Shown here: positions 4,025 through 58,506 of the stretch, in pieces | Position numbering within the stretch: the first letter of the stretch is position 1 | Layout: every line of letters begins with the position of its first letter | From: Promethearchaeota archaeon | GTDB lineage: Archaea; Asgardarchaeota; Lokiarchaeia; Sigyniarchaeales; SOKP01 | Reading direction: 5' to 3' | Assembly (NCBI GenBank): GCA_016839765.1 | Contig: JAEOTP010000015.1 | Coordinates: 1-64,000, forward strand | Length of the DNA: 64,000 nt | The notes under the pieces: model-generated | Seen by the model: the letters and a program-made list of their open reading frames with translations, nothing else | Databases searched by the model: none | Told to the model about the DNA's origin: nothing | Program-made: the position numbers and the translations under genes

Positions 4025-5212
4025 TTAGGTTAGAGTTAAATCCAGATGGATATCAGTTAAAGGATAAGATATACAAGGATGGATAAAGCCAAAATCTTTA
4101 TCAACCTCACGAATTGTAACTTCGGGAGGTACAAAAACTTTTCCAGAAATCATTTTAGTTCTGCACAATGCGCATTCACCTGAACGACATCCATTATTTA
4201 CATATAGAGCTAAGTTTTTTGTACGTTCTAAACTATTAATTAATGGCTCGGTACAATATGCTTCAAATTCAATTTTTTCTGTTTTACTATATTTCCTGAA
4301 TTTGATTGAAATGTTGACTTTTTTCGAACTATTAATTTCTGTTGGCCATCCCATAACTTGAGTGATATCATCTGGAACACCAAATGCTTCATAATATATT
4401 CTGTGTTTAGAAACTCCTAATTCTTTCATTTCCTCTTTTATGAATTGATACATAGGAAGATTTCCAACGATATAGAAATATTTATCCTTAATTGAACCGA
4501 TTTCATTTAAAATCTTATCTCTTGTAATAAAGCCACATTCACCTTTCCAATCAGACTCTGGTTCTGATAAAATAAAATTAGTCTTTATATTTGACCTTCT
4601 TTTTTGCATATCTTCTAATTCATCTCTAAATAGAATATCTTTTTCAGTTAAGCATCCGTATATTAGTGAGACGTTTAGAGGTATTGCTCTTTCAGAAATA
4701 TCTCGTAACATTGATATAAATGGTGTTATACCACATCCACCAGCAATATAGACTAAATCTTTACCATGAAACATTGAATTATAAGAGAGATTTCCTAATG
4801 GCTCAGTAACTTCAAAAATATCTCCAACTTTAGCATTTTCGAAAAAATATGGACTAACAAATCCGTCTTCTTTTTTTCTTATACCTAATTCATAGTAGGC
4901 GAGTTGATTAGGTGATGATACTATTGAATAAGGGCGTGAGGTTCGTACTCCGTTAATTTCTACTATAAGCCCTATATATTGTCCAGCACGAAACGGTGCA
5001 AGGGGTTTATTTTTTTTAGCAGAAATAAGCCTAAATAATTTTGTATCATGCGAGAGCGCCTTAATGTCGGTTATCTTTAATAATTGACTTCCTGGATGTA
5101 TTCTATCGCATAGGTTTTCCAAACCATCATAATACCAGGGTATTGCTTGAGTTTCTTCTCGCTGCTTTTTTAATTTTTCAGCTTTTTGATACTTTTTTAT
5201 ATCTTCCATCAT
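4025..5212 (-). CDS. FAD/NAD-binding ferredoxin reductase with C-terminal [2Fe-2S] domain (PaaE/KshB-like architecture)
   Basis: RPYSIVS, GFVS, AGGCGITP, EAFG, CRSGECALC...C; ATG at 5212 follows GGAGGTGG SD inside the end of the upstream gene. Confidence 0.88.
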   Translation of the reverse strand: MMEDIKKYQKAEKLKKQREETQAIPWYYDGLENLCDRIHPGSQLLKITDIKALSHDTKLFRLISAKKNKPLAPFRAGQYIGLIVEINGVRTSRPYSIVSSPNQLAYYELGIRKKEDGFVSPYFFENAKVGDIFEVTEPLGNLSYNSMFHGKDLVYIAGGCGITPFISMLRDISERAIPLNVSLIYGCLTEKDILFRDELEDMQKRRSNIKTNFILSEPESDWKGECGFITRDKILNEIGSIKDKYFYIVGNLPMYQFIKEEMKELGVSKHRIYYEAFGVPDDITQVMGWPTEINSSKKVNISIKFRKYSKTEKIEFEAYCTEPLINSLERTKNLALYVNNGCRSGECALCRTKMISGKVFVPPEVTIREVDKDFGFIHPCISYPLTDIHLDLTLT

Positions 5213-52545: not shown

Positions 52546-52716
52546 TTTTTTTTAAACAACTCCTTCATTAAATAATTTAAACGTTAATCTTATTATCAAA
52601 AAAGAAAGTTTTACATTTAATTATTTGTATTGAGATTTATAAGCTGTTAAAACCACAAAATTAAAAATTCATTGTATTTTAATAGTATTATTAGAGTATA
52701 ATTATTTTCAAATTAA

Positions 52717-52847
52717 GCCTCCGTGGCTTAGTGGTAGAGCAGCAGACTGTGAATGATTAAAGCTTTCTCTCTGCACTTGTAATCTGCCGGTCGTGGGTTC
52801 AAGTATTCAGAGCGTTTGGTTCTGAGTTGAAATTCCCACCGGGGGCT
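52717..52847 (+). tRNA. tRNA-Thr(UGU) with introns at 32/33 (52748-52776) and 59/60 (52804-52833)
   Basis: Acceptor GCCTCCG/CGGGGGC plus U73; D arm GCTT/GAGC; anticodon stem GCAGA/TCTGC; T stem GTGGG/CCCAC; both introns have bulge-helix-bulge geometry; no encoded CCA. Confidence 0.9.
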
Positions 52848-52955
52848 TTCTTAATTTACTACTCCTTCTAACCAAATATTTTAAAGAAAGCCTTAAATCA
52901 AGTAATATTATAAATCTTTAAGTTAATATTTAGATCAAACCTTTAAATCTCGAAA

Positions 52956-55663: not shown

Positions 55664-56275
55664 ATGGTTGAGTTGAATAAATTCATAGAAGAGTTAAAAA
55701 GTTCACGAAATATTGTTCGGATAACGGTAGTAGGAGATGGTGCGGTAGGGAAAACAACTTTAGTCCGAGCACTTCTTCGAAAAACTAAAAATTGTTCTGG
55801 AAATCATTCAAATATTAATTTAATAGAGGAAAAGGAAATTAAGCGTACTCCCTTCATAGAGATAGAATCTTGGACATATAAAGATTTGATAATTCAGTGC
55901 TATGATTTAGCAGGCCAAAGAATTCCAGGTGCTCATCCTTTAGATATTTTACAAAGTCAAGTTATTAGTTCAATAGATATTTTCATTTTTGTTTTCTCAG
56001 TTGATAGATATAAGTCTTTTGAAAACCTTAATAATTGGAGGACATTAATGAATTTAAATAACATGAGAAGGGATAATAACGGATTAATACTTGTTGGAAA
56101 CAAAATAGACTTAGAGAGAAATGTATCAAGAGGACTAGTACAATTAATTGCTGGGGAAGACAGATACTTTCATTCATATGTAGAAACAAGTGCAACAAAG
56201 GAAATTGGAATTGAAGAATTATTAGATGAAATTGTTAATGTTGGAAAAAAAATCTTAACATTTTACAGCTCTTAA
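55664..56275 (+). CDS. Ras-superfamily small GTPase
   Basis: GDGAVGKT, RT, DLAGQ, NKID, ETSA all intact. Confidence 0.92.
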   Translation: MVELNKFIEELKSSRNIVRITVVGDGAVGKTTLVRALLRKTKNCSGNHSNINLIEEKEIKRTPFIEIESWTYKDLIIQCYDLAGQRIPGAHPLDILQSQVISSIDIFIFVFSVDRYKSFENLNNWRTLMNLNNMRRDNNGLILVGNKIDLERNVSRGLVQLIAGEDRYFHSYVETSATKEIGIEELLDEIVNVGKKILTFYSS

Positions 56276-56286
56276 TTGATAATTGT

Positions 56287-58506
56287 ATGACTATTATAAA
56301 TTGTAAACTCTGTAATGAAAAGATTAGTTTTGACCTTCATAATGCAGGAACTTACTTACATATAACTGAGTCAGGAAATCCTATGATTGGAAAATTATAC
56401 ACAGTCCGCGTAGGACATCAAACTAATTCAGGATCATTACATATAAATGTTGTTGTTATCGATCAAAGAGGTGAATATCGTGCTCATAAAGATTACTATG
56501 AAGATAAACAACTTAAGGATAAAACAGCTGATATATGGGAAAAAATAATACATCAAATTCCAATAGAAATTCGAGCCTATTTATCCTTAGCAAATAATGA
56601 GGAAAAAAAAATTATCTCCTCAATTCCTGAACCATTTACTAAATCTGCTAATGAATGGTATGATGTTTTAATAAGATTAAAAAATGAAAATCCAAATAAT
56701 CAGTTGCTCAGCCTTCTTTCTGTTAAATGGGGTTTTATTATAGGTAAAGGAAAGCAGCTTTTACAGGATACTTATAATCCTAATTCCTGGAGTTATCCTA
56801 TCTATATACGCTTACAAGCAAGATTTGCTCCTAGACCAGAATTAGTTGGAATAGCAAAAAACATGAACATACCTTCTGCTCCCCCTTTAATGCAATTAGA
56901 AGAAGCGATCGCTAGAGCTGAAACTTATTTGCGTTTAAATGAATATAATCTTATAAAAGAATTATATAATGACTCTTTGAGAAAATGGGGAAATGAAACT
57001 TCTATTGAAATGAAAACTGGGTTAATGCTTATTCAAGGATATTATGGTTTTGGGTTCTACTTCCTTGGGGATATCAATAAAGGACTTGAATTAATAGAAC
57101 CAGCTTTTAATTTCGGACAAATAATTGAAAACCGTGAAGTAATCAGCATTACTGGAAATTTTTATGCTGCAGTGCTCCAATCCAGTGGAGAATTAGAAAA
57201 AACTTTACAGACTTACAATATTGTTCTAGATGTTAGTGAAGATATGGGTGATGAAAGAACTAAAGCTGTAATCTCAACAAATATGTCCATTGTTGAGTCA
57301 AAACAAGGATTATATGATAAAGCATTAAAACGTCAAAGAGCTATTTTAGAGTCACCAGTAGTTAAAGATGAATTTTTCTTAAAAATTTCGCTCCAAAGCA
57401 TTATCGCTGAGACGCTCTTTATAGCTGAGCATTATGATGAGTCAAAAGAGTTATGTCAAGCAATACTTCTTGAGAAAAATATGCCAACTAATTACAAATT
57501 TGATACCCTTTCCACCTTAAAAAAAATTGCCGGAAAGACTGATTCACCCGAATTATTGGAGTTTGTCACCAATAATCTACCGGATGATAAAGAATTTTTA
57601 GAAACACCTGTATATAAGATTTTTAATTATGATTTACAAGCAATTAATGCAAAATTACACGAAAACTGGCATGAATTAATTGAGTGTTTAAAGAACGAAC
57701 GAGATATTATGTTTAAGAATAAATTGGTAGAAGATGCGAGTGATATTGAAATTAGACTTGCTGATGGATATTTTAAACAATATCAAAAATCTGATAAGCT
57801 TGAATATCTCAATCATGCATATAGCCATTTAGACTTAGCTAAAATTATTGCTATAGAGCAACAAAATTATCTAGATCATTGTAGATTGGTAATGCTTAAA
57901 GGATTTCTAGCTTCAAAAAGTAAGTTATCTGAACAAGCAGAAATGAATTTTAAAGAAGCTTTGAAAATCGCTCGGGTATATAAATTAACTCATTTAGAAA
58001 GTCAAATTATCCAGCAATTAGATTTACTAAAAAAAGGTAGTATTGAAAAGTCTGCAGGTTCATTTTTACGGAAATTATTCAATAGATTAACCTTCAGAAA
58101 AGTTGAAGAGTCAAAACCAAAACAAAAAAGCATAATCTATGCAGTATCCATAGGAGCCCAAGATTCTACTTGGATGATGATTTTACAAAATGAAAAAGAT
58201 GGTAATCCGGAACATACTAATTATCTTTTAGGATTCCGTGATTTATGGAATCATTTAGGAACAGATAACATTCAGCAACAAGTAAATTATTTTACAGTCA
58301 GTAAGGGAGCTGTTTTAATCGAGAAGTCACTAAATTTTCAATTAATTGCTCTAAGCAATAAATTAGATTATTTAACTAGATTAACACTTCAGAATCTATT
58401 ACCTAAGATAGAAAATTTCTCTTATAAAAATATTCCCGAAAAGTTGACAGAACACGTGCATGAACTGATTAATAGCACTTTAACTAATTTTTTCAAAGTC
58501 AAGTAA
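56287..58506 (+). CDS. TPR-like helical repeat protein with N-terminal CxxC/His domain and possible C-terminal longin-like domain
   Basis: CKLC...H...H N-terminus; repeated G...A...Y/F helical pairs; C-terminal beta-beta-alpha-beta-beta-beta-alpha-alpha pattern; 11 nt after the GTPase gene. Confidence 0.7.
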   Translation: MTIINCKLCNEKISFDLHNAGTYLHITESGNPMIGKLYTVRVGHQTNSGSLHINVVVIDQRGEYRAHKDYYEDKQLKDKTADIWEKIIHQIPIEIRAYLSLANNEEKKIISSIPEPFTKSANEWYDVLIRLKNENPNNQLLSLLSVKWGFIIGKGKQLLQDTYNPNSWSYPIYIRLQARFAPRPELVGIAKNMNIPSAPPLMQLEEAIARAETYLRLNEYNLIKELYNDSLRKWGNETSIEMKTGLMLIQGYYGFGFYFLGDINKGLELIEPAFNFGQIIENREVISITGNFYAAVLQSSGELEKTLQTYNIVLDVSEDMGDERTKAVISTNMSIVESKQGLYDKALKRQRAILESPVVKDEFFLKISLQSIIAETLFIAEHYDESKELCQAILLEKNMPTNYKFDTLSTLKKIAGKTDSPELLEFVTNNLPDDKEFLETPVYKIFNYDLQAINAKLHENWHELIECLKNERDIMFKNKLVEDASDIEIRLADGYFKQYQKSDKLEYLNHAYSHLDLAKIIAIEQQNYLDHCRLVMLKGFLASKSKLSEQAEMNFKEALKIARVYKLTHLESQIIQQLDLLKKGSIEKSAGSFLRKLFNRLTFRKVEESKPKQKSIIYAVSIGAQDSTWMMILQNEKDGNPEHTNYLLGFRDLWNHLGTDNIQQQVNYFTVSKGAVLIEKSLNFQLIALSNKLDYLTRLTLQNLLPKIENFSYKNIPEKLTEHVHELINSTLTNFFKVK

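Follow-up and report, generated by a model that had tools for sequence, protein, structure and literature searches.

The locus at positions 52717-52847 raises the question of which tRNA it encodes, as two intervening sequences split it and alternative excisions of the first leave either a threonine or a histidine anticodon on an orderly cloverleaf. The window, i.e., the whole stretch of 64,000 nucleotides that was analyzed, derives from a 3.32-Mb MAG (29.7% GC, 96% complete, 96 contigs) of Promethearchaeia (Loki-type Asgard). The genes adjoining the tRNA locus code for a family B polymerase and a Ras-like GTPase, and positions 55664-58506 hold a Ras/Arf-like small GTPase (203 aa) followed, after an 11-nt gap, by a 739-aa TPR-containing protein. 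A first-pass annotation had read the locus as tRNA-Thr(UGU) with two non-canonical introns, masquerading as tRNA-His(GUG) when unspliced. The analysis described here indicates that it is very probably the single, essential tRNA-Thr(UGU) gene of this Loki-type Asgard archaeon, spliced as a two-intron precursor, and that the mature anticodon is, with about the same high confidence, predicted to be UGU.

Gene anatomy and detection

The locus is a plus-strand tRNA gene with two intervening sequences, its letters and coordinates being those given by the first-pass annotation, and it comprises the following parts.

52716, plus strand: position -1, an A; the G-1 of the tRNA-His genes in the genus is absent
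52717..52747, plus strand: exon 1, tRNA positions 1-32 of the cloverleaf that forms after splicing; acceptor 5' strand GCCTCCG, U8, D arm GCTT/GAGC (7-nt loop), position 26, anticodon-stem 5' strand GCAGA, then C32
52748..52776, plus strand: intron 1, 29 nt, at position 32/33; relaxed bulge-helix-bulge (BHB) motif of the hBH type
52777..52803, plus strand: exon 2, tRNA positions 33-59; U33, anticodon UGU at 52778-52780, A37 and A38, stem strand TCTGC, variable loop CGGTC, T-stem GTGGG, T-loop TTCAAG
52804..52833, plus strand: intron 2, 30 nt, at position 59/60 in the T loop; strict hBHBh' motif
52834..52847, plus strand: exon 3, tRNA positions 60-73; U60, T-stem 3' strand CCCAC, acceptor 3' strand CGGGGGC, discriminator U73; CCA not encoded

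When 52717-52747, 52777-52803, and 52834-52847 are joined, the resulting 72 nt are recognized by ARAGORN as a full-length, mismatch-free tRNA-Thr(tgt), and removal of 52748-52776 and 52804-52833 reproduces the anticodon loop CU-UGU-AA that had been claimed for the spliced product. This product has the cloverleaf expected of an archaeal elongator tRNA-Thr, defined by a length of 72-76 nt, stems of 7/4/5/5 bp, U8, G18G19, a TTCRANY-type T-loop, and a 7-nt anticodon loop with U33. Excision of 52753-52781 instead of intron 1 yields an equally tidy tRNA-His(gtg) by the same program.

Standard gene finders do not report the gene. Across the 64-kb window, default ARAGORN detects no tRNA at all, and a search with Rfam at the gathering score likewise gives no match. 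With a relaxed threshold, the Rfam tRNA model produces a partial match at 52717-52799 (21.4 bits against a cut-off of 29, E 0.07), the alignment containing a 31-nt insertion in the anticodon arm. After removal of intron 2, ARAGORN -i names the gene Asn(gtt), with the intron reported as i(36,29); the same option names the genome's tRNA-His gene Glu(ttc). Thus, the suspicion that automated tools would miscall the gene holds insofar as it is missed by ARAGORN and Rfam or called Asn, but none of the tools run returned a His call: the masquerade as tRNA-His is real at the level of the cloverleaf and was not reproduced as a tool assignment.

Splice motifs of the two introns

In the BHB scan, all pairs of cut sites were scored under the rule that cleavage falls after the second nucleotide of each 3-nt bulge and that the four nucleotides 5' of each bulge must pair together; this rule was checked on the canonical intron of the Arg(CCU) gene of the same genome. 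Two grades of motif were distinguished: the strict hBHBh' form, in which a 4-bp central helix (H) is bordered by two 3-nt bulges, one on each strand, and continues beyond each of them in a helix of 2 bp or more (h and h'), and the relaxed hBH/HBh' form, which keeps the complete 4-bp central helix but for which a single well-formed 3-nt bulge and a helix on one side are enough. The 131-nt precursor folds with a z-score of -2.9.

Intron 2, with cuts at 52803|52804 and 52833|52834, is of the strict form (H 4/4, h 5, h' 9). The central helix consists of four Watson-Crick pairs between TTCA (52798-52801) and TGAA (52828-52831), flanked by the bulges AGT and ATT, and the TTCA in question is the T-loop strand (54-57) rather than the TTCA internal to the intron. 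The 5-bp exon helix is the T stem, and the intron folds into a 9-bp hairpin that pairs 52805-13 with 52819-27. The complete motif is present in the RNAfold centroid fold of the 131-nt precursor, and only 0.3% of the shuffled versions of intron 2 give H=4 together with h' of at least 3. The description of this intron as a textbook BHB, with a TTCA/TGAA core, a 9-bp intron stem, and the T stem as the exon helix, is therefore upheld by both the scan and the centroid fold.

Intron 1, for which the scan places the cuts at 52747|52748 and 52776|52777, falls short of the strict form and matches the relaxed hBH form (H 4/4, h 3, h' 1). Four Watson-Crick pairs join GCAG (52742-45) to CTGC (52771-74), ACT bulges lie on both strands, positions 24-26 pair with 34-36 in a 3-bp exon helix, and just one G.U pair makes up the intron helix. 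The geometry proposed for this 29-nt intron was thus recovered by the scan; moreover, in the RNAfold minimum free energy structure of the precursor, the GCAG(A)/(T)CTGC helix forms together with the ACT bulge at 52775-77 and the pairing of 24-26 with 34-36. The 3' end of the intron, TCTGC-AC, duplicates stem strand 39-43 and nucleotides 31-32, and the 5' end, TGTGAA, yields the decoy GUG. The motif competes with the D stem, and a 4-bp helix arises in 2.2% of the shuffled sequences at the same register and in 14% of them when any of 14 registers is allowed. Hence, the motif is only modestly beyond chance and is by itself weak evidence that cannot settle the anticodon. The 32/33 design recurs in the tRNA-His gene of the same genome and across the His orthologs. 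Intron 1 is predicted to be cut at its bulges by the splicing endonuclease.

Threonine identity, the tRNA complement, and the choice of anticodon

The body of the spliced tRNA is identical at 56 of 72-73 positions to Thr(GGU) and to Thr(CGU) of the genome and at 48 of 73 positions to tRNA-His. The three Thr genes have in common the acceptor stem GCCTCNG (GCCTCCG in the window, GCCTCGG in GGU, and GCCTCTG in CGU) and U73; the argument that U73 suits Thr is borne out by this shared discriminator, the His genes carrying C73. The shared features thus comprise G1-C72, C2-G71, C3-G70, and U73, which we take to be identity elements for ThrRS. The genes compared in the genome are as follows.

C15:16721-16823: Thr(GGU), with a D-arm intron
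C25:33806-33936, plus strand: Thr(CGU), with two introns
G000:C67:4736-4868 (locus L040:101-233), plus strand: tRNA-His(GUG), with G-1, C73, and two interruptions

Additional Thr genes were sought by an acceptor/T-arm scan, GC-filtered to 35 candidates (24,122 unfiltered), by BHB-guided splicing, and by two pattern searches. Only three Thr-like genes were recovered, and this check of the 96%-complete, 96-contig MAG found no other Thr(UGU) gene by either scan or pattern. Among the candidates that were rejected, the ARAGORN -i prediction of Thr(tgt) at C73:12087-12189 belongs to a Ser(UGA) gene, which has a canonical intron and whose variable arm is long, and the "Thr tgt" combinations at C50:31920 and C56:505 have an acceptor stem with the G3.U70 pair of Ala and better solutions as Ala. 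Given that the gene in the window is the sole Thr(UGU) gene found and that ACA accounts for 38.5% of the Thr codons in 814 long open frames, it should be essential. The sole ACA-reading tRNA found in the genome is invisible to ARAGORN and to Rfam at the curated threshold, and intron-aware callers can misassign its anticodon; tRNA complements and inferences on codon capacity for such MAGs will be wrong unless non-canonical introns are handled.

The first-pass annotation had also called for a separate tRNA-His(GUG), and the gene listed above, with its G-1 and C73, is that tRNA. It contains a 30-nt intron at 32/33, in which GGGG (27-30) pairs with CCCC at the intron 3' end, followed by AC, and a second insert of ~31 nt in the variable region; the reading as tRNA-His(GUG) with two interruptions is confirmed by an intronless His ortholog in genome G007. 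All eight of the His orthologs displayed have g at -1, and the His genes of the genus have C73. Same-genus His orthologs carry from zero to three interruptions.

Interrupted genes are common in the tRNA set of this genome (G000). Default ARAGORN reports just 23 tRNAs, and no gene was located for several isoacceptors, Phe and Asn among them; about 26 of the ~40 detectable tRNA genes are interrupted, several of them by two introns, and seven have a 30-32-nt intron at 59/60. The 59/60 introns of Thr(CGU) (C25:33806-33936, plus strand) and of a probable Ile(UAU) gene (G000:C34:6686-6837, minus strand) are identical at 25 of 31 positions, i.e., essentially one T-loop intron resides in two different tRNA genes, which recalls the intron copying described in Thermoproteales; such copying is rare in Asgard according to a 2026 preprint (10.64898/2026.10.13.758758). 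At G000:C15:16721-16969 (plus strand; L042), two interrupted tRNA genes, namely Thr(GGU) with its D-arm intron and a 136-nt gene that contains two inserts and has the anticodon CAT, lie 10 nt apart and may be co-transcribed. At G000:C34:4361-4453 (plus strand), ARAGORN calls a tRNA-SeC(tca), with an Rfam tRNA match of 34 bits at 4362-4449; this call fits the selenocysteine system reported for Lokiarchaeota (PMC4989117).

Contigs from four metagenome DNA studies, of marine sediment, mangrove, other sediment, and soil, contain the gene with both introns; no intron-less allele was seen in contigs from the four DNA runs. No RNA run was among the sequencing runs that contain the locus. In these contigs, the exons are invariant, and the flanks and introns vary; two substitutions seen in intron 2, 52812 G>A and 52826 G>A, convert G.U to A-U pairs in the hairpin. 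The flanks of the locus are so AT-rich that a consensus scan for promoter and terminator would carry little meaning. One mangrove-metagenome contig matches the sequence on both sides of 52674-52932, where 232 different nucleotides replace the 259; it probably comes from a related strain whose tRNA locus is divergent or carries a different set of introns.

These data bear on the possibility that the locus is an unprocessed or decaying tRNA pseudogene and that ACA is read by something else. Its invisibility to the standard finders and the weak intron helix of intron 1 could be taken in that sense. Nevertheless, every stem is intact once the introns are removed, the exons are identical between strains that differ in the flanks, about two thirds of the detectable tRNA genes of the genome are interrupted likewise, and a pseudogene would leave the frequent ACA codons without the only UGU isoacceptor found. 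We consider this explanation very improbable.

The anticodon itself was addressed through a BLAST search of 40 relatives with the 131-nt gene, which yielded matches across the genus. Genomes G013 and G022 have genes 98-99% identical to that in the window, with both introns. The ortholog in G007 is free of intron 1 (the alignment is gapped at this point) and directly reads GCTGA-CTTGTAA-TCAGC; it contains a different 30-nt intron at 59/60. In the orthologs of G004 and G008, the intron at 32/33 is 27 nt long and has an intron helix of 8 bp, and the T loop is uninterrupted; in seven genomes, an intron of 28-30 nt shows its best BHB at 30/31; in G024, the intron lies in the D arm, and in G017, at the canonical 37/38 site. 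Besides G007, thirteen further same-genus orthologs, with introns at 32/33, 30/31, the D arm, or 37/38, give UGU. The best BHB was read for only the five ortholog rows displayed (G000/G013, G004, G011, G018, and G017), and in each of the five the best register gives UGU. Accordingly, it is the comparison with relatives, rather than the splice motif alone, that settles the predicted anticodon as UGU, and the original proposal of a two-intron tRNA-Thr(UGU) stands on the ARAGORN fold of the spliced 72 nt, the BHB geometry, and the orthologs, G007 and those with introns elsewhere alike.

The same comparison weighs against a canonical-like cut at 37/38, which would remove 52753-52781 and place a GUG anticodon on the threonine body in some or all of the product. 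Formally, the cloverleaf left by that excision is flawless, and a 5-bp exon helix (h=5) could be supplied by the real anticodon stem. However, as the first-pass annotation had maintained, there is no 4-bp helix at this register: two of the four central pairs form, and they are not adjacent, so that no recognizable GUG splice motif exists, and the only register with a 4-bp central helix for intron 1 leads to UGU. The G-1 and C73 of tRNA-His are missing from the gene, a proper tRNA-His is already encoded in the genome, G007 has no intron at this place at all, and a Thr-charged GUG tRNA would mistranslate His codons. Nor is the decoy conserved: canonical-like cuts in the relatives would leave other anticodons, CAG in G004 and UUA in the orthologs with a 30/31 intron, and the GUG decoy therefore appears to be an accident of one young lineage. 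Exclusive or partial use of this register is extremely improbable. A mixed scheme, in which splicing occurs mostly at 32/33 to give Thr(UGU) and occasionally at a 37/38-like site to give GUG on a threonine body, is just as hard to credit; the suggestion of alternative splicing to GUG found no support, the decoy being confined to three near-identical genomes. If true, mixed splicing would amount to regulated or noisy recoding of His codons through alternative tRNA splicing, which, to our knowledge, has not been shown in any organism.

Least probable of all is the use of another register that would generate Thr(GGU) or Asn(GUU). The cloverleaves for these registers also form, and the Asn(gtt) call of ARAGORN -i could be cited in their favor, but only one of the four central pairs is present with no flanking helices, the orthologs give UGU, and Thr(GGU) has a gene of its own. 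A Tyr(gta) product for 52717-52847, which surfaced in a relaxed BHB enumeration, depends on 3/4 helices and on a stem with a mismatch, and it finds no agreement among the orthologs.

Splicing endonuclease, known systems, and intron turnover

The presence of multiple non-canonical introns had led to the expectation of a splicing endonuclease (EndA) of relaxed specificity. The profiles PF01974 and PF02778 match two loci in the genome (C72:10166-10645 and C82:30139-30636), which correspond to the following genes.

L031:1453-2058 (C72), minus strand: EndA alpha, 201 aa, catalytic
L032:1423-2040 (C82), minus strand: second EndA paralog, 205 aa

EndA alpha aligns with the catalytic subunit of Aeropyrum pernix (E 3e-37) and retains the catalytic Tyr/His/Lys: the stretch ...vvYr...lEHSpfivH...svRKK... 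aligns to chain 3p1z_B, and the H-to-A mutant chain 3ajv_B marks the position of the His. The specificity loop reads gin-KPR-leyf against dve-KPR-gadf in A. pernix (chain residues 44-46), where K44 and R46 of the Crenarchaea-specific loop confer broad specificity (PMC3241643). The second paralog has Ala at the site of the catalytic His (...knAAky... opposite ...keHSvy... of M. jannaschii 1a79) and is closest to the M. kandleri and M. jannaschii chains, not to the crenarchaeal beta subunit. Together, the two paralogs would constitute a two-subunit (alpha-beta)2 EndA, a type with the L1 insert already reported for Asgard (PMC5829648). In agreement with the expectation, typing of the subunits by sequence points to a two-subunit enzyme with a Crenarchaea-type specificity loop.

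We propose that a ~131-nt precursor is transcribed with both introns and that the (alpha-beta)2 EndA, whose catalytic subunit carries the lysine/arginine loop, cuts each intron at the two 3-nt bulges that flank the 4-bp helix. In intron 2, T-loop nucleotides 54-57 and the T stem would supply the exon half of the strict bulge-helix-bulge. Intron 1 would be recognized in an alternative fold in which 27-30 pair with the CTGC copy at the intron 3' end and 24-26 pair with 34-36, such that the D stem and the real anticodon stem could form only after its excision. Ligation would then give the 72-nt tRNA with the loop CU-UGU-AA, to which CCA would be added later. The analysis shows how the gene is built, its motifs and orthologs, the EndA genes, and the tRNA set; that the locus is transcribed, where it is cut, in which order the introns leave, and that the tRNA is charged with threonine are all predicted here from the DNA.

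Several parallels to this scheme are available. In A. pernix, the D-loop intron of pre-tRNA-Thr(UGU) is cut by an (alpha-beta)2 EndA (Hirata et al., 2011, PMC3241643). The present gene seems to share with the Thermoproteales and Aeropyrum systems the BHB or relaxed hBH/HBh' splicing logic and a specificity-loop enzyme in which the equivalents of K44 and R46 are kept; unlike those systems, it belongs to a different phylum and to a mesophilic organism with an AT-rich genome, and its cleavage is predicted. With respect to intron sites, position 59/60 is listed as non-canonical in a review (PMC4090602), and the site list consulted there includes 29/30 and 30/31 and lacks 32/33. As in the TACK/Asgard (alpha-beta)2 EndA of Kaneta et al. 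(2018, PMC5829648), there are two paralogs of ~200 aa, of which one has the catalytic residues and K-P-R and the other is devoid of the catalytic His; here, assembly and substrate range are predicted.

Heavily interrupted Asgard tRNA genes, missed introns, and two EndA paralogs have also been published (2024, PMC11291895; Goswami et al., 2026, 10.64898/2026.10.13.758758). The cases in these two studies resemble the present one in having several BHB introns per gene, at non-canonical positions that include the T arm, in being missed or mis-annotated by standard software, and in the presence of two EndA paralogs per genome; they differ in centering on Atabeyarchaeia and Freyarchaeia/Jordiarchaeia. 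The main text of the Goswami et al. (2026) preprint contains no term starting with "Lokiarch" or "Promethe," and therefore the Loki-type genus may lack such a detailed description. The first-pass annotation had set the multiple non-canonical introns beside those of Thermoproteales; the host here is an Asgard archaeon, and from Asgard archaea such genes and the enzyme had already been described (PMC5829648, PMC11291895, 10.64898/2026.10.13.758758). The gene uses a known mechanism and a known type of enzyme and is a well-built example of the kind described in Asgard archaea. What remains new is the turnover of introns within the genus, not the decoy anticodon.

Across the Thr(UGU) loci of this one genus (L002-L014 and L021; alignment A1), five or six intron architectures occur at one orthologous gene: 32/33 alone or together with 59/60, 59/60 alone, 30/31, 37/38, and the D arm. 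BLAST aligns the introns at 30/31 with those at 32/33 over the full length at 74-81% identity, and both have AC at the 3' end, which suggests a 2-nt slide of the intron from 30/31 to 32/33. The genus series at the Thr(UGU) locus could serve as a natural series for the movement of BHB introns, and it is relevant to the gain, loss, and shifting of introns in archaeal tRNA genes.
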